64,000 nucleotides of DNA from a virus (lineage: Duplodnaviria; Heunggongvirae; Uroviricota; Caudoviricetes), in the IMG/VR virus record IMGVR_UViG_2541047850_000005, positions 3,554 to 67,553 of that record; one strand, written 5' to 3'. Positions 707 through 9,614 of this stretch are shown piece after piece. Positions within the stretch are counted from its first letter, which is position 1; each line of letters starts with the position of its first letter. The notes beneath the pieces were generated by a model. That model ran no database searches and had not been told where the DNA came from. It saw only the letters and a list, made by a program, of their open reading frames with translations. Made by a program: the position numbers and the translations under genes.

Positions 707-1291
707 GTTTCCAATACACCTACCATAACGCGCCAATGATGGCGCGTTTTTATTGTCTTTAACTCACTCCAACAACATAAAAATAAGCGCCAAAATAACG
801 CCATAGACGCGATTTTATATCCTTGCCAGTACACACCCATTACTTAACACATTAACGCGCTTAAAACGCGTTATATTGCGCTATAGAGTATGGTTAATCA
901 TTGGCTTTTAGTCTTGCTTTATGATCCGCGTTTATTTGTCGGCGCGGATCGGCATTTTGTTTTGTTCCGTATCCGCTCGCGTATTATGTGCGCGTGATTT
1001 TTCACATAATCACACCACTTAATCACGTATGTGATTACGCTACGAAAGAAATCTGGATGTCTCAGGCGACGAAAGTCATAATAATTTTCCCCGCTCACCT
1101 GTCCGACAACCGCTGGTTGGATTCCACCAGCTTCCCGATGTTTTTTCTACATAAAGGCGAATGCAGCCGTTTCCCGAAAAAATCCTGGCCGTTTCCCGTC
1201 GGCTAATGAATACGTTCCTCGCCGTTTCTGAAAATTTCCCTACGGCAGCTGATGGATATAGAGAAAGGGCCGTTTCTGGCCCTCTTCTCAG

Positions 1292-1774
1292 TTACACGCC
1301 ATCAAGGATGTGGATGCGGTTGCTTGCGTATACATTCAGCATAAAGTTAGCGCAAAACAGTTTCCATGTATCAACGCCAGCGGTATACGTAATGTTTTTG
1401 CATTTAATTGCATTGTTGGCGATCCGCATCCCCTGCGATACTGCTTCATCGTCGGAAAATTTGAACGACGATTGAGTTTTAATCCAGACAGAAATCTGCG
1501 TAGCGAACTCAATCAGCTTGGACTGGCAGAATCGCCCGGAGCGCACCGGAAAGACGAACGTTCCGAATCCAGAATTTACCACATACGCTTTCTCAAATAC
1601 CCGCGAGTAACGACGATTGCCAATGATGTCGCGTGCAATAATGCATTTTTCTTGTGCTGACAGTTCTACCGTCTCATTGTCGCGCCATGCACCAAGTACT
1701 CGTTTTTCAATGTCAGAGAACGTTACAGCGATATTGCCATGTGCGGGTGCGTTTACAGTAGCGATAAAATTCAT
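1292..1774 (-). CDS. hypothetical protein (160 aa)
   Basis: ORF track; preceded (high-coordinate side) by motif-1 element at 1792-1812. Confidence 0.5.
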   Translation of the reverse strand: MNFIATVNAPAHGNIAVTFSDIEKRVLGAWRDNETVELSAQEKCIIARDIIGNRRYSRVFEKAYVVNSGFGTFVFPVRSGRFCQSKLIEFATQISVWIKTQSSFKFSDDEAVSQGMRIANNAIKCKNITYTAGVDTWKLFCANFMLNVYASNRIHILDGV

Positions 1775-1812: not shown

Positions 1813-2124
1813 TTGGCGTTAATTATCGTTGTACGAATAAGGCATCAAAGTGGAAAGTTGCGGTAGCCGGACGGGAACAGGTGGGTTTGTCGGTTGCCTG
1901 GAGGTAAGAGGTTGGTGTTTTTAGCCTGCGGGAAACAGGATGGTCATTTAAGGCCACCAGCAGTGGTGGCCTTAATAATTATCGACCGATTACGCTAAGG
2001 ATCTTTTCCTCAACTGATTTGTTGTTGCGACTAAACTGCCTTGCGTATCTGATGACAGAAGAGGCGTTTTGCTTTCTGACTATCTCGGCTCTTTCCTTCA
2101 GGCGTTTCTTGAAATCGCCCATAT

Positions 2125-3139: not shown

Positions 3140-3451
3140 TCAGGCTATTGCCATCACTGATGCTCTCTGAATCTCTTGCTGGGCCACGCGGTTAACTTCC
3201 ATCAAAGCCAGTTCGAGCTGATGTTCCGGCCACATTCTTTGAAATGCCATCCAGCCTTTTCCACGCTGGCGACGAACATTCATTACATAACGAGTAAAGG
3301 TGTTTTTATCGAAAGACACCGCTGTTTCACGGAACAGACGAATAGAGGTTCCATTGGCAACGATGTCCAGCAAAGTTAATTGAGCAACCAGCGCAGGCTT
3401 CTCTTTTCTCTTCTGGTCTTTGTCCAGACCAAGAACCAATGATTTTTTCAT
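3140..3451 (-). CDS. hypothetical protein (about 104 aa)
   Basis: ORF 3140..3481 trimmed to the ATG at 3451 (MKKSLVLG…) that follows a GGAG SD and lies downstream of motif-1 copy 3461-3479. Confidence 0.45.
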   Translation of the reverse strand: MKKSLVLGLDKDQKRKEKPALVAQLTLLDIVANGTSIRLFRETAVSFDKNTFTRYVMNVRRQRGKGWMAFQRMWPEHQLELALMEVNRVAQQEIQRASVMAIA

Positions 3452-3934: not shown

Positions 3935-4039
3935 AAAGCAATCCTTAAACATGTTGTTTTCTGAATTACGTAAACAATACCAGTAAGAAAACGGCCACAA
4001 AGTATATCGTTACGGTGCTGCGCTGCCCCGGAGGTTAAT

Positions 4040-4066
4040 AGCGACAAAAGCCACCGTGCTGGTGGC
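4040..4066 (-). terminator. rho-independent terminator-like hairpin
   Basis: Minus-strand GGCCACCAGCACGGTGGC followed by CTTTTGT, directly after the 4074..4292 stop. Confidence 0.5.
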
Positions 4067-4073
4067 CTCACTC

Positions 4074-4292
4074 TTAATCTTGGTCGTCCGGGAACTCGCT
4101 GTGTACCGCGCCAACCAGCTCCCGCTTTTCATCTTCACTCAGCAGGTGCCAGATATCCTTCCCTTTGGGCGATTCCCCTTCTGCCGGGACGAACGACCAC
4201 AACTTGCGGTACAACTCCGGCCCCACTGCATCCAGACACTCAGCCAGGGAATCCACGCCCCACACCTCAACCGTCACAGGCATCTTAATCAT
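4074..4292 (-). CDS. hypothetical small protein (72 aa)
   Basis: ORF track; terminator-like hairpin GCCACCGTGCTGGTGGCC at 4049-4066 just after the stop. Confidence 0.4.
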   Translation of the reverse strand: MIKMPVTVEVWGVDSLAECLDAVGPELYRKLWSFVPAEGESPKGKDIWHLLSEDEKRELVGAVHSEFPDDQD

Positions 4293-4879
4293 CTCTTCAT
4301 CCTCACTTCGTTTCTATAACGTCTAAATATGCTGTTTACTTGTTGGTGTTATTATCGCAATAAGACAAAGGCGAAAAAGGATTTTATGTCGGGAAAGCCA
4401 GGCTGGGCAGTGAATATCCGGGAACGACACGAGAGCCAGTATTTACGATATTCTGCTCTACGCACGCCGCGGGGCTGGTGGGCAGAATAATCCTCTCCCC
4501 GAAAACCTACTGAAATCGATTGTGACCCGCTGGCTGTCTGGCACAATTACGCTGTATCTGGCATTCAGAGGGAATCCAGCGGTAAGCAAGTCAGCCTGCA
4601 CGTGAGCGTCTCTCTTCTTCCCGCACATTACAGGTGGGTAGCTGCAACTCTCTCTCGCTATACCGGTACGCCGCCGTTCCTGAACCGGCATCGAGCCTTT
4701 TCCCGAAATCCACACAGGCAACTCGACCGTTTCCCTGAAAATCCCCAGCCGTTTCTGTAGCGTATGCAACCTTTTCTCTGTATGGACCGAAGGCTGACCG
4801 TAGGGGTGTTACGGGGGATGATGGTAAGATGTTGAATAAATACGAAAAAGGAGGCGACACCCCTCCTTCCCTCCCCACT

Positions 4880-5660
4880 TATACATACCTTGCTTCTTCG
4901 CTATACATGTTGTGTTTTCTTCGTGTTTTATCTGTCTCAACCTCTCTATAGGCGTTAATGCTTACTCCTTCCAGAACGTTCTATACGGCGACTATTTCTG
5001 TTGGTGAATTGGGTGTGTTGTTTTCTCTGTCGATGTATGTGGTTTCGTTCGTTTTGCGGTGGTTCTTCTATGGGGTGTTCTCGTCGTTTTGGTGATTGTT
5101 CTTCTCCGTGTATGGAGTAATGGCAGGTGGGCGATTCCTTTCGTTATTGTGTTTGAGTTGTTTGTCTGGAGTGTGTGAAGGGCTTTTGTAGTTATTCGTG
5201 TATTGGGTAATGGCGTTTCCCGTGATTGTTATGTTTCGTGTCTTTTGGGATTGAGAGAAACCTTGCGGTTACAGGCTTCGTTGGGGTTTCAGCGGTTCAG
5301 GTGTTTCTTCGCTGTTTGGGTAATGGCGTGTCGTGGGTATCGCGCGTATGAATGTTTTCGGATTGCCTGTGAAAGTTAGGTTGGTTATCCGGTAGCCTGG
5401 GAAGAAGAGGTGGGGTCTTTTCGGTAGCCTGCCATAAAGAGGTTGGTTGTTTTGGGTAATGGCATATGTGTTATTTGGTTGTTTTGTTATGCCTGAAAAT
5501 AAGTTGTTTATATGGTTGTGTAACGCAACGGGAGCGATTTTGAGCGTGTGTTTTTGTTGGTAGTGTGTTGAGTCGTCTGTGGTGAAAATTGGACGCTGTG
5601 GAGCTGTCTGCTGCGTAGGTTTACGGGTATAAGAAGTGATGTGTGAAAACGTCAATTTTT
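4880..5660. repeat. strand-asymmetric GT-rich repeat block (no credible ORF)
   Basis: Plus strand is almost only G and T over about 800 bp; at least 4 copies of GGGTAATGGC plus one GGAGTAATGGC, and repeated CGGTAGCCTG; ORFs called here are low-complexity. Confidence 0.5.
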
Positions 5661-5861
5661 TAGACCAAATCGGGAGAAAGCGTTGATGTTTCGTTGATCT
5701 GTTATTTAGTTGTTTTCTTATTGGTATAAACAACTGTAACCTATTGATATTTAAGGATGTGATTGCAGGCATGGAAGGGGAGTAGTGGCGATCAACGGAT
5801 TCTTATAGAAAAGAATCAAATTGTGACCGCCATTATCAACGGTTTGAATATGTTTGCAGAT

Positions 5862-6170
5862 TTACCAGTTCCAGCACTCAAGCCCTTCAACGACCGGCGC
5901 ACCACAATCAAAATGTACAGAGTCAAAGCCTACATCAAGTACTTTCTGAATGTTAGCAATCGCGCCTTCGGATATACCATATCGACGCAAGTCGTCTTTC
6001 CAGACATCATCCTGTAACCCGGCGTGGACAATACAACCGCCATCAATTTGTGAAACCCAATCCAGCTCATTGCTTGCGATCATGAATCGGCGAGCATCTT
6101 CCTCTGATGTATGAGATGAACTGATCAATGCCACCTGGTAGGCTTGGGTAATGTTCAACATTTCAACCAC
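5862..6170 (-). CDS. hypothetical protein (102 aa)
   Basis: ORF track; two motif-1 copies upstream at 6172-6194 and 6221-6240. Confidence 0.45.
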   Translation of the reverse strand: MVEMLNITQAYQVALISSSHTSEEDARRFMIASNELDWVSQIDGGCIVHAGLQDDVWKDDLRRYGISEGAIANIQKVLDVGFDSVHFDCGAPVVEGLECWNW

Positions 6171-6322
6171 TCCAAAACAAGTTGTTTTCTTATGTGGCTT
6201 ATTATCTCTAACAACAAAAGGCAGAAAACAAATTGTTTTAGGTACTGTGTAAATCAGAAGGGATTGTGTCTATATGAAAATGCCCGGCGTGTTGCCGGGC
6301 ATTGCGAAGAGAGGTTGCTTAA

Positions 6323-8356
6323 TTACTTAACCTGGTGACCAGGTTTAGCACCAGCATCCGGGCTTAACAGGAAGATATCTTTCCCACCAGGACCAGCAGC
6401 CATCACCATGCCTTCTGAGATACCGAAACGCATTTTACGCGGAGCCAGGTTAGCCACCATAATGGTGTGACGACCAATCAGTGCCTGTGGGTCTGGATAA
6501 GCAGAACGAATGCCGGAGAAGACATTACGCTTTTCCCCACCGAGATCCAGTGTCAGACGCAGCAGTTTGTCAGAGCCTTCAACAAACTCCGCGTTTTCAA
6601 TCAGCGCCACACGCAGGTCAACTTTGGCGAAGTCGTCAAAGGTGATGGTTTCCTGAATCGGGTCGTCAGCCAGTGGGCCAGTTACCGGTGCGGCTGTGGC
6701 TTTCACTTCTTCTTTGGATGCTTCCACCAGTGCTTCCACCTGTTTCATATCGATGCGGTTATACAGCGCCTTGAACGGATTCACTTTGTGGCCCAGCAGC
6801 GGTTGCTGGATACCATCCCAGGTCAGTTCTGTATTGAGGAATGCTTCTGCGCGCTCGGTCAGTTTCGGCAGTACCGGTTTCAGGTAAGTCATCAGCACGC
6901 GGAACAGGTTAATGCCCATAGAGCAAATCGCCTGCAGATCGGCATCGCGACCTTCCTGCTTCGCCACCACCCACGGAGCCTGTTCATCGACATAGCGGTT
7001 AGCCAGGTCAGCCAGTGCCATGATTTCACGGATAGCTTTACCAAATTCGCGGCTTTCCCATGCTTCGCCAATCACTTCAGCGGCATCAGTAAAGGTTTTG
7101 TACAGTTGCGGGTCAGCCAGTTCGCTTGCCAGCACGCCGTCAAAACGCTTGTTGATAAAGCCTGCATTACGGGAGGCCAGGTTAACCACTTTGTTCACGA
7201 TATCGGCATTCACTCGCTGAACGAAATCTTCCAGGTTGAGATCGATATCATCAATGCGCGAAGAGAGTTTCGCAGTGTAGTAGTAACGCAGGCTGTCGGC
7301 GTCAAAATGATTCAGCCAGGTGCTGGCTTTAATGAACGTGCCGCGAGACTTGGACATCTTCGCACCGTTCACCGTCACATAGCCATGAACAAACAGGTTG
7401 GTCGGCTTGCGGAAGTTGCTGCCTTCCAGCATGGCAGGCCAGAACAGGCTGTGGAAGTAAACGATATCTTTACCGATGAAGTGGTACAGCTCGGCGGTGG
7501 AGTCTTTCTTCCAGTATTCATCGAAGCTGGAGGTGTCGCCGCGTTTGTCGCACAGATTCTTGAAGGAACCCATGTAGCCAATCGGCGCGTCCAGCCAGAC
7601 GTAGAAATATTTGCCCGGCGCGTTCGGAATTTCAAAACCGAAATAAGGGGCGTCGCGGGAGATATCCCACTGTTGCAGGCCAGATTCAAACCACTCCTGC
7701 ATTTTATTTGCCACCTGCTCCTGCAACGCACCGCTGCGGGTCCATGCCTGCAGCATTTCGCTGAAAGAAGGCAGATCAAAGAAGAAGTGTTCGGAATCAC
7801 GCATTACCGGCGTAGCACCAGAAACTACCGATTTCGGCTCGATCAGTTCAGTCGGGCTGTAAGTCGCGCCGCAGACTTCACAGTTATCGCCGTATTGATC
7901 TGGCGCTTTACATTTAGGGCAGGTGCCTTTTACAAAACGGTCCGGCAGGAACATGCCTTTTTCCGGGTCGTATAACTGAGAGATGGTGCGGTTTTTAATA
8001 AAACCGTTCTCTTTCAGGCGAGTATAAATAAGCTCGGACAACTGACGGTTCTCTTCGCTGTGCGTCGAGTGATAGTTGTCATAGCTGATGTTAAAGCCTG
8101 CAAAATCAGTCTGGTGTTCCTGACTCATTTCGCCAATCATCTGTTCCGGTGTGATACCAAGCTGCTGTGCTTTCAGCATGATCGGTGTGCCGTGGGCATC
8201 GTCGGCACAGATGAAATTAACCTCGTGGCCGCGCATTCGCTGGTAACGAACCCAGACATCAGCCTGGATGTGCTCCAGCATATGGCCGAGGTGGATTGAG
8301 CCGTTAGCGTACGGCAGCGCGCACGTCACCAGAATTTTCTTCGCGACTTGGGTCAT
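6323..8356 (-). CDS. metG: methionine--tRNA ligase (MetG), E. coli-type
   Basis: 677 aa from [41 protein letters not shown]…; class I aaRS HIGH/KMSKS (KMSKS present), C-terminal tRNA-binding domain; from memory near-identical to E. coli MetG. The ORF track's 43-residue N-terminal extension (to 8485) is rejected. Confidence 0.95.
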
Positions 8357-8513
8357 AGTAGGCATTACTTCTTTGTAGTGAAAAGGGGCTTGATAGTAAC
8401 AAAATGGCCTTATGTCTGCCATGTGATAACAGCATTTCTCATAAATGATTAAATGCCGTAGCTGGAGTACACTACAAGGCGACAATTGCGCAAATTAAAA
8501 TAAAGGAGACGGG

Positions 8514-9614
8514 ATGAGCGAGTCCAAATCGCCGGATGCCCTGAGAGCAATGGTAGCCGGTACGCTGGCTAATTTTCAGCACCCAACCCTGAAACACAAC
8601 CTGACTACGCTTAAAGCGTTACACCATGTTGCGTTGATGGATGACACACTGCATGTCGAACTAATCATGCCTTTCGTGTGGAATAAGCCTTTTGAAGACC
8701 TGAAAGAGCAATGTAGTGGTGATCTGCTCCGTATCACTGGCGCAAAGGCTATCGACTGGAAGCTGTCGTACAACATTGCCACGCTTAAGCGCGTCAAAAA
8801 CCAACCAGGCATTAATGGCGTTAAGAACATTATCGCCGTCAGCTCAGGCAAGGGCGGCGTTGGTAAATCCTCCACGGCGGTAAACCTGGCACTGGCGTTG
8901 GCTGCTGAAGGTGCGAAAGTTGGTATTTTGGATGCCGATATCTACGGGCCATCAATTCCAACCATGCTTGGCGCGGAAAACCAACGTCCAACCTCACCGG
9001 ACGGTACTCACATGGCACCGATTATGTCTCATGGACTGGCAACCAATTCAATTGGTTATCTGGTAACTGACGACAATGCGATGGTGTGGCGTGGTCCGAT
9101 GGCGAGCAAGGCGTTAATGCAGATGTTGCAGGAAACTCTATGGCCTGATCTGGACTATCTCGTTCTCGATATGCCGCCGGGTACTGGTGATATTCAGCTG
9201 ACGCTGGCGCAGAACATTCCTGTAACTGGTGCTGTTGTGGTAACTACGCCGCAAGATATCGCGCTGATCGATGCGAAGAAAGGCATTGTGATGTTCGAAA
9301 AAGTCGAAGTGCCGGTACTGGGTATCGTCGAAAACATGAGTGTGCATATTTGCAGTAACTGCGGTCATCACGAGCCAATTTTTGGCACCGGTGGCGCACA
9401 GAAACTGGCCGAGAAATACAACACGCAGTTGTTAGGCCAAATGCCACTTCATATCTCTCTTCGTGAAGATCTGGATAACGGAACACCAACCGTTATTAGT
9501 CGTCCAGATAGCGAATTTACGGCTATTTATCGTGACCTTGCAGATCGCGTTGCTGCCCAAATGTATTGGCAAGGTGAAGTAATACCTGGCGAAATCGCAT
9601 TCCGCGCAGTGTGA
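8514..9614 (+). CDS. apbC: Fe-S cluster carrier ATPase ApbC/Mrp
   Basis: 366 aa with Walker A SSGKGGVGKSSTAVNLA and CxxC (CSNCGHH) motif; divergent from metG as in the E. coli chromosome. Confidence 0.93.
   Translation: MSESKSPDALRAMVAGTLANFQHPTLKHNLTTLKALHHVALMDDTLHVELIMPFVWNKPFEDLKEQCSGDLLRITGAKAIDWKLSYNIATLKRVKNQPGINGVKNIIAVSSGKGGVGKSSTAVNLALALAAEGAKVGILDADIYGPSIPTMLGAENQRPTSPDGTHMAPIMSHGLATNSIGYLVTDDNAMVWRGPMASKALMQMLQETLWPDLDYLVLDMPPGTGDIQLTLAQNIPVTGAVVVTTPQDIALIDAKKGIVMFEKVEVPVLGIVENMSVHICSNCGHHEPIFGTGGAQKLAEKYNTQLLGQMPLHISLREDLDNGTPTVISRPDSEFTAIYRDLADRVAAQMYWQGEVIPGEIAFRAV

Follow-up and report, generated by a model that had tools for sequence, protein, structure and literature searches.

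Rho-loading (rut) regions, for example that of lambda tR1, lie between transcription units and specify ~80-100 nt of RNA that is untranslated, C-rich, G-poor and unstructured. Direct repeats, with a second cluster of the same repeats some kb away, make up iteron origins and the bipartite ori/crr of satellite phage P4, while R-loop and D-loop regions (the ColE1 RNA II origin, T4 oriF/oriG and the mitochondrial control region) display, on a G/T-rich displaced strand, an excess of G over C and of T over A that extends over hundreds of bases. The multi-site sponge RNAs CsrB/CsrC and CrcZ carry several copies of a short motif, in one orientation and at irregular spacing, presented in hairpin loops of a single, well-expressed transcript. 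Finally, phage T5 possesses a large non-coding repeat region near its injection-stop signal.

Here we describe a gene-free block of ~1.5 kb, 70% G+T on the plus strand and with regularly spaced repeats at its edges, that shares some features with each of these systems. It lies in a 64 kb window (the whole stretch of DNA that was analysed) from an SSU5/pHCM2-type phage-plasmid, to which Escherichia phage PhiR41_1 is 99.8% identical. As with rut regions, the putative minus-strand RNA of the block would be untranslated, C-rich, G-poor and unstructured, and the block sits between transcription units; unlike them, it extends over ~700 nt, contains conserved boxes and has an intrinsic terminator at its end and phased DNA repeats on its flanks. 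It has the two- and three-turn phasing, the whole-unit copy changes and the second cluster a few kb off that are seen in iteron origins and P4 ori/crr, but it lacks an adjacent initiator gene, a conserved AT-rich region and a conserved DnaA box, and its long strand-asymmetric core is without counterpart there. The skew is that of R-loop and D-loop regions, and the phage encodes an RNase H; however, the G density is below the usual criteria, no promoter for a G-rich RNA strand was found in the block and the best terminator evidence in it is for the opposite strand. The short boxes, several in one orientation and irregularly spaced on one putative transcript, recall CsrB/CsrC and CrcZ, although the RNA of the block would be structureless. 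Like the T5 region, the block is gene-free over more than 1 kb, combines direct and inverted repeats and is located among the early genes of a large siphovirus, but no sequence similarity was found between the two. Taken as a whole, the block is probably a control element of the phage lytic cycle.

The strand asymmetry that the initial annotation had singled out is real and unique in the window. In 400-bp windows across the 64 kb, the G+T fraction averages 0.504 (sd 0.038), and 4741-5880 is the sole stretch to reach 0.62 or more, peaking at 0.752; in 600-bp windows it peaks at 0.74 in the block and stays at or below 0.59 outside 4000-6500. The description of 4880-5660 as almost purely G and T was an overstatement, since the measured G+T content is 70%: base frequencies at 4880-5700 are A.163, C.139, G.301 and T.397. 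The GC skew of the block is +0.37 to +0.51 and its AT skew -0.25 to -0.58, with a GC content (0.39-0.47) close to the window average. Given the G+T richness of the plus strand, minus-strand transcription of the core would yield an untranslated RNA that is C/A-rich, G-poor and unstructured. From ~5700 down to 5020 (~700 nt), the ratio of C to G on the minus strand is mostly 2-7, compared with a 95th percentile of 1.7 across the whole window, and the minus strand of the core folds with only -3 to -18 kcal/mol per 120 nt. The features of the block and of its partner arrays to the left are as follows.

1166..1277, plus strand: iteron array 1, four CCGTTTCy copies (1167, 1189, 1222, 1270)
1857..1950, plus strand: 31-bp repeat array 1, three copies, repeat family D1
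4674..4777, plus strand: iteron array 2, five direct copies of cAG-CCkTTyCy-ctg
4803..4817, plus strand: conserved G cluster GGGGTGTTACGGGGG, kept in the 9-way alignment
4832..4871, minus strand: intrinsic terminator from the terminator scan, hairpin 4871-4845 and then a U-rich tail CGUAUUUAUUCAA
4880..5640, minus strand: strand-asymmetric core, defined by plus-strand G+T richness
5115-5124, 5205-5214, 5318-5327 and 5454-5463, plus strand: GTAATGGC boxes
5355..5453, plus strand: 31-32-bp repeat array 2 (CGGTAGCCTG-N7-AGAGGTGGGGT), repeat family D1
5466..5490, plus strand: first copy of the 25-nt direct repeat (ATGTGTTATTTGGTTGTTTTGTTAT), containing a half operator, repeat family D20
5497..5510, no strand assigned: palindromic operator AAAAyAAnTTGTTT, a full palindrome in all relatives
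5637..5661, plus strand: weak terminator-like hairpin (TGATGT/ACGTCA) followed by T6, which the terminator scan finds in pHCM2
5681-5687 and 5692-5698 (plus strand), 5791-5797 and 5835-5841 (minus strand): CGTTGAY boxes within the right border, 5681..5841
5697..5721, plus strand: 25-nt direct repeat, copy 2; its minus strand has half operator AGAAAACAA
5786-5794 and 5824-5832: inverted repeat TGGCGATCA / TGACCGCCA among the CGTTGAY boxes

The CCGTTTCC-type repeats noticed in the initial annotation number five at 4674-4777 and four at 1166-1277, all on the plus strand. Copies in iteron array 2 start at 4674, 4696, 4727, 4749 and 4770, that is, at a spacing of 22, 31, 22 and 21 bp; the corresponding spacing is 22, 31, 22, 22, 22 in Cyrano, pHCM2, SSU5 and E. 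hormaechei, the Cyrano array having exactly one additional 22-bp unit, and 22, 22 in Klebsiella and Buttiauxella. Outside the two arrays and a site at 3254, the stricter motif GCCkTTTCy has only two matches in the window, and the ~91 kb scanned of one relative's genome showed no further cluster of the repeat motif. The DnaA-box-like site AATCCACAC at ~4706 is not conserved in relatives. Within the core, the at least four repeat copies reported earlier are four GRGTAATGG sequences on the plus strand (starts 5115, 5205, 5318 and 5454), three of them exactly GGGTAATGGC and one GAGTAATGGC, and the motif occurs nowhere else in the window on either strand. With up to one mismatch allowed, GTAATGGC has four matches, compared with 0.4 +/- 0.7 in dinucleotide shuffles. 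The first three GTAATGGC boxes each close a degenerate unit resembling TTCTTCTCCGTGTATGGAGTAATGGC, which is matched exactly only by the 5096-5124 copy. Relatives carry 4-6 boxes, on the same strand throughout and 41 to 144 bp apart, and the boxes coincide with invariant alignment columns.

Repeat array 2 comprises copies at 5386-5421 and 5418-5453 and a third, degenerate one at ~5355-5385, and Tandem Repeats Finder returned a period of 32 for the 5355..5453 array. The 31-bp repeat occurs two to three times, and the 31-32 bp spacing of array 2 recurs in all relatives that have two copies. The two copies of the 25-nt repeat are 88% identical and both are kept in relatives. The iterons and the 31-bp arrays also frame a 160-aa gene (1292..1774, minus strand) 3.5 kb from the block: iteron array 1 lies directly past its terminator, and 31-bp array 1 directly upstream of its promoter and operator. 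In pHCM2, E. hormaechei, Klebsiella and Buttiauxella, a GGTAGCCTG copy is found ~3.1-3.4 kb left of the block. Homologues of the 160-aa protein, for which the AlphaFold model is confident (pLDDT 90.6), are mostly encoded on large (~100-kb) enterobacterial contigs. Since the phasing (22/31 bp and 31 bp) is fixed in every relative, as arrays of protein sites on duplex DNA would lead one to expect, the protein-coated DNA suggested in the initial annotation is plausible for the flanks of the block.

The hairpin of the minus-strand terminator is present in 9/9 relatives with differing stem sequences, and in each of them the minus-strand form is the more stable one (-9 to -19 kcal/mol versus -2 to -12 kcal/mol on the plus strand; consensus fold energy -10.2 and 0, respectively). 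The palindromic operator at 5497..5510 is the same as the one that overlaps the 5' ends of early genes, where it is situated 10-25 nt upstream of the start codons at 1810, 3478, 3962, 6190, 19790 and 42190. The half operator GTTGTTTTCTT has three matches versus 0.2 +/- 0.4 in shuffles; we rejected a half-operator array as a feature of its own, the enrichment being modest (3-4 sites). The hairpin at 5637-5661, which is also one arm of an inverted repeat ACGTCAA...TTGACGC, has consensus fold energies of -8.9 on the plus and -7.0 on the minus strand. Its 5' arm varies: six pairs are kept in the window, Cyrano, pHCM2, E. hormaechei and SSU5, five in Buttiauxella and Salmonella, and four or five in Klebsiella and E. 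cloacae. The right border adjoins variable cargo, its columns are nearly invariant in 9 relatives, and its consensus hairpin energy is -11.0 on the minus and -8.5 on the plus strand. Promoter scans returned no convincing sigma-70 promoter on either strand of the block, but they are uninformative here because evident early-gene promoters were missed as well; weak -10-like hexamers adjoin the 5497 operator.

The block is among the best-conserved non-coding parts of SSU5/pHCM2-type genomes, which belong to phage-plasmids of gut bacteria. It matches 835 plasmid records in PLSDB (Klebsiella 427, Escherichia 224, Enterobacter 90, Salmonella 49, plus others), and among the matches listed most have no annotated feature beneath it. 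The possibility, allowed for in the initial annotation, that the region is absent or unconserved in relatives clearly fails because the block is conserved: its genomic position is constant, identity between genera is ~70% over ~750 bp, and identity between lineages is 64-73%, a range shared with several flanking genes. An alignment of six lineages from five genera has 41% invariant columns. Per genus, the records that match the block are about as many as those that match the left-flank genes, except in Klebsiella and Yersinia. Despite a divergence of 28-36%, G+T is 0.67-0.70 in every lineage, and even the variable columns are 67% G+T. Current polymorphism opposes the bias (61 G/T->A/C changes versus 35 A/C->G/T changes). 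The base composition of the block is held by selection. A scan of viral contigs with the degenerate pattern GTAATGGC-N80-110-GTAATGGC returned at least 120 loci, almost all of them chance; among the matches listed, only contigs L049, L082 and L155 are SSU5-like. A scan with a 22-nt core in one genome per species retrieved only a Kluyvera plasmid contig and one contig labelled as a Bacillota MAG, which is presumably mis-binned. In the literature we found nothing on the block, and the sole transcriptome found covers lysogens only.

The block is not coding. A protein-coding gene, as annotated in PhiR41_1, Cyrano and SSU5, was rejected on the grounds that the frame is broken and substitutions are not codon-periodic. 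In 19 of 21 other close sequences, the 167-aa ORF is disrupted by a frameshift or a stop, the frame being kept in one of the remaining two and the other being stop-free yet out of frame; its substitutions are spread 29/31/25 over the three codon positions and the indels across it are mostly of 1-2 nt. Neither this ORF nor a 95-aa one matches a Pfam or PHROG family, unlike all eight neighbouring genes, and the earlier assessment that the region has no credible ORFs is thus borne out. Known RNA families were likewise rejected, as Rfam searches came back empty both at the gathering threshold and at permissive E-values, and so was a structured RNA: fold z-scores are -1.55 and +1.23 relative to shuffles with neither strand better, and consensus folding found no conserved fold in the core. 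As an Hfq sponge the block has only one (ARN)n tract, located outside the CA-rich part, in which there are no (ARN) runs of four or more repeats; as a MazF/ACA decoy it shows no ACA enrichment beyond composition; and instead of a cluster of Chi sites (GCTGGTGG or near matches) the core has one near match. An R-loop-forming sequence or ColE1-type origin was rejected for the core, where G averages 30% and is at most 40% per 100 nt, without a G-cluster initiation zone; the sole cluster of the R-loop-initiation type in the scanned 4800-5900 is that at 4803-4817.

All genes neighbouring the block are on the minus strand, while in Klebsiella-type relatives the adjacent cargo genes are oriented away from it. 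The cargo itself differs between relatives (MetRS; a GIY-YIG nuclease; DUF262 with a type I restriction-modification system). Genes for two ParB N-terminal-domain proteins and an ABC ATPase lie ~9-10 kb from the block, and the terminase genes are ~13 kb away. The phage also encodes, besides RNase H, a DnaB-like helicase, DnaE, a ligase and a 5'-3' exonuclease. In Table S1 of PMC9928086, CYRAN_103, the ORF over the block, is at the expression floor in 10/10 Cyrano lysogen samples, and the gene just upstream is at 57 FPKM. None of the 55 Yersinia records that match the left flank matches the block. In Yersinia pMT1, of which one locus was inspected, both the block and the GTAATGG motif are absent, while the neighbouring 160-aa gene unit, iteron array 1 and 31-bp repeat array 1 are retained. 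As pMT1 is stably kept, the block is neither a plasmid origin nor a centromere; it is dispensable for plasmid maintenance. Of the roles suggested in the initial annotation, the centromere-like one therefore falls away; a packaging site sits poorly with the distance to the terminase genes and with the SSU5 record, which begins at the terminase module rather than at the block; and a replication origin is weakened by the lack of conservation of the DnaA box and of any AT-rich element, and by a cumulative skew with only a local bump and no replication-type switch. A reading at the level of RNA, which the initial annotation did not consider, has at least equal support, from the minus orientation of all neighbouring genes, the conserved minus-strand terminator and the rut-like composition of the minus-strand RNA.

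The reading we prefer, and hold tentatively, is that of a repressor-controlled, untranslated minus-strand unit whose C/A-rich, G-poor and unstructured RNA would load Rho and which is bracketed by protein-binding arrays. The block would be a cis-acting control element of the early (lytic) programme, built like the neighbouring single-gene units minus the gene. An operator-bearing start region at ~5500-5720 on the minus strand would be followed by ~0.65-0.85 kb of untranslated DNA, specifying an essentially unstructured RNA of this composition, and the unit would end at the conserved intrinsic terminator 4871-4845; the 31-bp repeats would fall within its upstream (5') part, and the 22-bp iterons just beyond the terminator. 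The RNA may then offer a long single-stranded platform, in the simplest case a very large rut region, so that untranslated transcription starting in or entering the block would be halted, with the GCCAUUACyC boxes kept accessible as predicted binding sites for some factor. Minus-strand transcription from a start inside the block, the participation of Rho and the identity of what the boxes bind are what we infer here. The predicted RNA has the composition of rut sites, being C-rich, G-poor, unstructured and untranslated over ~700 nt where a rut region requires ~80 nt or more, and the early-gene operator sites inside the block, its silence in lysogens, its absence from pMT1 and the architectural parallel with the 160-aa gene unit all count for a control unit. 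Against it, known rut sites occupy ~80-100 nt rather than 700 and can do without conserved boxes; repeats phased at a fixed 22 and 31 bp suggest binding of duplex DNA, which the RNA model leaves unexplained; the weak plus-strand hairpin at 5637-5661 hints at some plus-strand transcription; and no convincing sigma-70 promoter was found in the block, the RNA-seq being from lysogens only. Since the cargo genes of the Klebsiella type point away from the block, a pure read-through insulator cannot explain its conservation there.

The main rival, which we consider somewhat doubtful, is a lytic replication origin or cis-acting replication region, in which a phage initiator would bind the 22-bp iterons, the CGTTGAY boxes and the inverted-repeat sites, the 700-bp core, hairpin-free on both strands, would be the zone of unwinding, helicase loading or priming, and the array pair 3.5 kb away would be a partner site, as crr is for ori in P4. 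The phasing fixed in every lineage, with copy number shifting by whole units, and the conserved right border with its four clustered CGTTGAY boxes and two inverted repeats are in keeping with an origin, as is the replication gene set of the phage; internal repressor operators and lysogen silence would be expected of one that fires only in lytic growth, pMT1 shows that the block is not the plasmid replicon, and a selected single-strand composition fits a function exercised during DNA unwinding. The same arrays, however, frame an ordinary gene, suggesting that they mark the borders of transcription units. Beside the repeats there is no initiator gene but small proteins without assigned function, no conserved AT-rich unwinding element was found at a GC content of 0.39-0.47, the DnaA-box-like site is unconserved and the skew a local bump, and a G-rich-strand promoter was not found in a core that falls short as an R-loop former. 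A protein-coated DNA site with another role (packaging recognition, ParB-like partition or condensation, or a recombination anchor bordering the cargo hotspot) would also account for the phased arrays, for the constant vicinity of a variable cargo region with differing genes and for the ParB-domain proteins and ABC ATPase ~9-10 kb away. We regard it as improbable: the terminase is ~13 kb off and nothing in the SSU5 record suggests ends at the block, pMT1 is stably maintained in its absence, Chi-like sequences show no enrichment, and duplex binding does not explain a strand-specific composition in variable columns.

That composition could instead serve a decoy or sponge RNA, an abundant early transcript that titrates a host or phage RNA-binding protein through many single-stranded copies of GCCAUUACyC and CAGGCUACCG on the minus strand, in a background unable to fold; Rho would be the obvious target because the RNA is C-rich and G-poor. 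Four to six motif copies in one orientation and at variable spacing are indeed what sponge RNAs have, unlike phased DNA sites, selection maintains the unstructured background, and the minus-strand terminator implies that full-length RNA ends are made. Yet no promoter emerged from the scans of the block, Rho should shorten any such untranslated C-rich RNA, and the single Hfq-type (ARN)n tract outside the CA-rich part and an ACA content not beyond composition offer no help, and we consider a sponge improbable too. A functionless relic, for instance decayed tandem intergenic modules with a skew from strand-biased mutation, appears very unlikely. The core does resemble degenerate 90-140-bp units, the function of the block is assigned by inference, and an unrelated viral contig (L134) also has a long A+C-rich, G-poor and ORF-poor stretch; but a relic would not be expected to keep 41% invariant columns across six lineages and five genera, the 64-73% identity of several flanking genes, or a frequency per genus close to that of the left-flank genes except in Klebsiella and Yersinia, and the bias stays the same from lineage to lineage although polymorphism wears it down. 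Finally, and unlikely in our estimation, the block could represent something new: a long structure-free, C-rich early RNA acting as a decoy for Rho or another single-stranded-RNA-binding protein, its production controlled by the phased arrays, or an undescribed type of lytic origin. The latter may apply if single-stranded DNA is the selected feature, as a hairpin-free, strand-asymmetric loading zone.

Among clinical Klebsiella, E. coli, Enterobacter and Salmonella, phage-plasmids of the SSU5/pHCM2 type are common, some of them with resistance genes. How they control their lytic cycle and replicate during it is essentially uncharacterised, and database records leave the block blank or place spurious 'hypothetical proteins' over it. 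Deciding between a transcription barrier, a decoy RNA and a lytic origin would provide a handle on induction and on copy-number bursts, as well as on cargo exchange at the adjacent hotspot. Finally, the block is a clear case of one-strand base composition itself being under selection, which suggests that the function resides in single-stranded nucleic acid.

The gene-free block at ~4670-5850 stands apart from the rest of the window in its strand composition. G+T per 400 bp has a mean of 0.504 (sd 0.038) over the whole window, and 4741-5880 is the only stretch in the 64 kb that reaches at least 0.62 (maximum 0.752); in 600-bp windows outside 4000-6500, G+T never exceeds 0.59. The GT-rich character described in the initial annotation is thus borne out, while its wording 'almost purely G and T' overstates a skew that amounts to 70% G+T at 4880-5700. 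Against a rough background of ~1 Mb of viral contigs drawn from an unrelated pattern search, one non-SSU5-like contig alone has a 600-bp window of at least 0.68. An unrelated low-GC viral contig (IMGVR_UViG_3300049432_000210, L134 ~6700-9300) carries a long A+C-rich, G-poor and ORF-poor stretch (600-bp peak: A.41, C.28, G.09), and strongly strand-asymmetric, ORF-poor stretches may recur in other phages.

Escherichia phage PhiR41_1 shares 99.8% identity with the region; for phage Cyrano and related E. coli and Shigella plasmids of ~108-112 kb the figure is 92-97%. These elements are classed in the SSU5/pHCM2 phage-plasmid supergroup (PMC7969092). The block itself matches 835 PLSDB plasmids (Klebsiella, Escherichia, Enterobacter, Salmonella, Citrobacter, Cronobacter and others), with ~70% identity across ~750 bp between genera, and most of the hits listed have no annotated feature beneath the match. 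Genus by genus, about as many records match the block as match the left-flank genes, except in Klebsiella and Yersinia.

Features of the block, its surroundings and related records (window coordinates unless a fetched locus, L, is named)
4674-4777, plus strand: iterons, five CCkTTyCy copies, start-to-start about 22, 31, 22 and 22 bp, kept among relatives
4803-4817: conserved G cluster, following the iterons from left to right
4832-4871, minus strand: terminator, hairpin with U-rich tail
4880-5640: core, with 4-6 GTAATGGC boxes on a single strand at variable spacing (41-144 bp)
5355-5453: 31-32-bp repeat, two to three copies
5466-5490 and 5697-5721: 25-nt direct repeat, half an operator in each copy
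5497-5510: operator palindrome AGAAAACAAnTTGTTT
5630-5845: conserved right border, four CGTTGAY boxes, two inverted repeats and a weak hairpin
5637-5661, plus strand: weak terminator-like hairpin within the right border
6323-8485, minus strand: full-length methionyl-tRNA synthetase, cargo adjoining the block
8514-9614, plus strand: ApbC/Mrp-like iron-sulfur carrier, cargo adjoining the block
Minus strand, in order: 31-bp array 1950-1857; promoter and operator; 160-aa gene 1774-1292; terminator; iteron array 1277-1166
L001 9292-9561 and 10086-10472, L002 7175-7579 and 8069-8425, L033 3130-3327 and 3703-3942: 'hypothetical protein' CDS over core and left flank in the PhiR41_1, Cyrano and SSU5 records

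The repeats noted initially are real. GRGTAATGG occurs four times, each time on the plus strand, and the 64 kb holds no further copy (4 hits versus 0.4 +/- 0.7 in dinucleotide shuffles), in line with the 'at least four copies' claimed; three copies are exactly GGGTAATGGC. Repeats of the CCGTTTCC type are likewise present at 4674-4777 and 1166-1277, and the Cyrano iteron array has exactly one additional 22-bp unit. The hairpin at 4832-4871 folds in 9/9 relatives despite differing stem sequences, and in each of them the minus-strand form is the more stable one (-9 to -19 versus -2 to -12 kcal/mol; consensus fold energy -10.2 versus 0). This predicted terminator is the strongest directional signal of the region, and says that minus-strand transcription would end here. 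In one E. coli plasmid an IS3-family element (L030 1748-2961) is inserted at the equivalent of ~4808, between the iteron array and the terminator; since the plasmid is maintained, this position tolerates disruption.

The initial annotation found no credible ORFs in the block, and those annotated over it are indeed spurious: they have no Pfam or PHROG family match while 8/8 neighbours match PHROGs, frameshifts or interruptions break a 167-aa ORF in 19/21 other close sequences (PhiR41_1 included), and its substitutions are spread evenly over codon positions (29/31/25). The CDS recorded over core and left flank in PhiR41_1, Cyrano and SSU5 are very probably mis-annotations that arise because the skewed sequence is poor in stop codons. 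A structured RNA was rejected as well: Rfam has nothing in the block, neither strand folds more stably than shuffled controls, and a consensus-fold scan covering both strands in nine relatives detected no conserved structure inside the core.

The composition of the core is itself constrained. G+T stays at 0.67-0.70 in all lineages, which diverge by 28-36%; in the 4975-5495 alignment it is 67% in variable and 75% in invariant columns. Among 22 close relatives, G/T to A/C polymorphisms outnumber the reverse (61 versus 35; rare variants, 43 versus 23), with ancestral states assigned by majority rule. Since mutation appears to erode a bias that nevertheless remains constant, we read the composition as maintained by selection, subject to the majority-rule assignment. 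A constraint on one strand suggests that single-stranded nucleic acid, be it RNA or unwound DNA, or a strand-tracking process is involved.

The minus strand, which encodes nearly all genes surrounding the block, would yield an RNA of 41% A, 30% C, 14% G and 16% U with a C/G ratio of 2-7 over ~700 nt (window-wide 95th percentile 1.7), nearly devoid of secondary structure and lacking a reading frame. Being C-rich, G-poor, unstructured and untranslated, this predicted RNA shows the features that define a Rho-loading region, but is far longer than known ones.

On its left the block is flanked by small early genes that each have a promoter, an operator and a terminator of their own. The AGAAAACAAnTTGTTT palindrome also overlaps 5' ends of early genes throughout the window. 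A palindromic operator of 15-17 bp, AGAAAACAAnTTGTTTTCT, is found at 1810, 2557, 3478, 3962, 6190, 6223, 15229, 19790, 20519 and 42190; at most minus-strand sites the gene start follows 10-25 nt downstream and a -10-like hexamer precedes the operator by ~10 nt, which looks like one repressor's regulon over many single-gene early units. An invariant stretch at 4345-4360 holds two overlapping extended -10 elements that face each other, TGTTATTAT (plus) and TGCGATAAT (minus); the latter is consistent with an early promoter for gene 4292..4074, and the former could drive an 80-aa gene of SSU5-type relatives. That plus-strand gene, directed into the block in SSU5, pHCM2 and E. hormaechei, is one of two alternative fillings of a single spot (window 4388-4582; L033 2780-3022; L026 2268-2510), the other being an unrelated conserved non-coding segment of ~190 bp in the window, Klebsiella, Buttiauxella and another Salmonella lineage. 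Chi (GCTGGTGG) occurs 13 times in the 64 kb versus ~2 by chance (e.g. 1131, 1961, 4058, 4474, 9901, 25494), several copies sitting within terminator hairpins of the form GCCACC...GGTGGC; Chi density in the E. coli chromosome is roughly equal. To the right, sequence diverges among relatives directly beyond the conserved border: the window has the MetRS and ApbC/Mrp-like genes, while a DUF262 protein and a type I restriction-modification system occupy the spot in Klebsiella relatives and a GIY-YIG nuclease does so in an E. hormaechei relative. The cargo hotspot begins exactly at this border, ~5845.

Both the iterons and the 31-bp repeats also frame the 160-aa gene 3.5 kb away, in the identical order of elements, the C/A-rich core of the block taking the place of the gene; no further cluster of either family occurs in the window, nor in ~91 kb from a close relative. 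In Yersinia pestis pMT1, of the same supergroup, the 160-aa unit and its two arrays are present and the block is missing. As pMT1 is stably inherited, the block is neither the plasmid origin nor the centromere. Between converging plus- and minus-strand gene blocks, 840-1290 is a 450-bp gene-free zone dense in hairpins, whose pMT1 counterpart contains several GC hairpins that resemble terminators and lead into T runs.

The Rho-loading properties, co-oriented neighbours, minus-strand terminator, operators and gene-like bracketing lead us to favour, tentatively and at less than even confidence, a minus-strand unit that is not translated and belongs to the early lytic programme. A repressor acting at the operators would control it, its RNA would offer a single-stranded platform, in the simplest case to Rho, and the phased arrays of protein-binding sites would either regulate the unit or delimit it. 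Our caution reflects that no promoter was identified in the block by scans that also miss obvious early promoters, that the conserved boxes and DNA phasing are left unexplained, and that in Klebsiella-type relatives no upstream unit reads into the block, which also rules out a simple read-through insulator. A lytic origin or cis-replication region, a doubtful though possible reading, accounts for the iterons and inverted repeats, operator control, loss from pMT1 and the hairpin-free zone, but the block has no AT-rich element and no conserved DnaA box (the DnaA-box-like site noted initially is not shared by relatives), there is no adjacent initiator gene, cumulative skew does not switch, and R-loop criteria give a negative result.

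Irregular motif spacing would suit a putative decoy or sponge RNA, a reading that we consider unlikely. Packaging, ParB-type binding, a recombination anchor or another protein-coated role has little direct support and is equally improbable. That the block is a functionless relic is most unlikely of all, because it is conserved and because of the direction of its polymorphism. The sole transcriptome located comes from E. coli LF82 lysogens carrying Cyrano: in its Table S1, CYRAN_103 (the ORF over the core) is at the expression floor in 10/10 samples, the cargo gene just upstream is at 57 FPKM, and expression of the downstream early gene increases independently (PMC9928086). By these tabulated values the block is silent in lysogens and cargo transcription does not pass through it.

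Individual parts of the block resemble rut regions, iterons, operators and terminators. Our literature search returned no element combining these with a strand-asymmetric 700-bp core and, to our knowledge, none uniting them with a core selected for such asymmetry has been described. While its function is unproven, the block is a real, widespread, unannotated and unusual element of these phage-plasmids.
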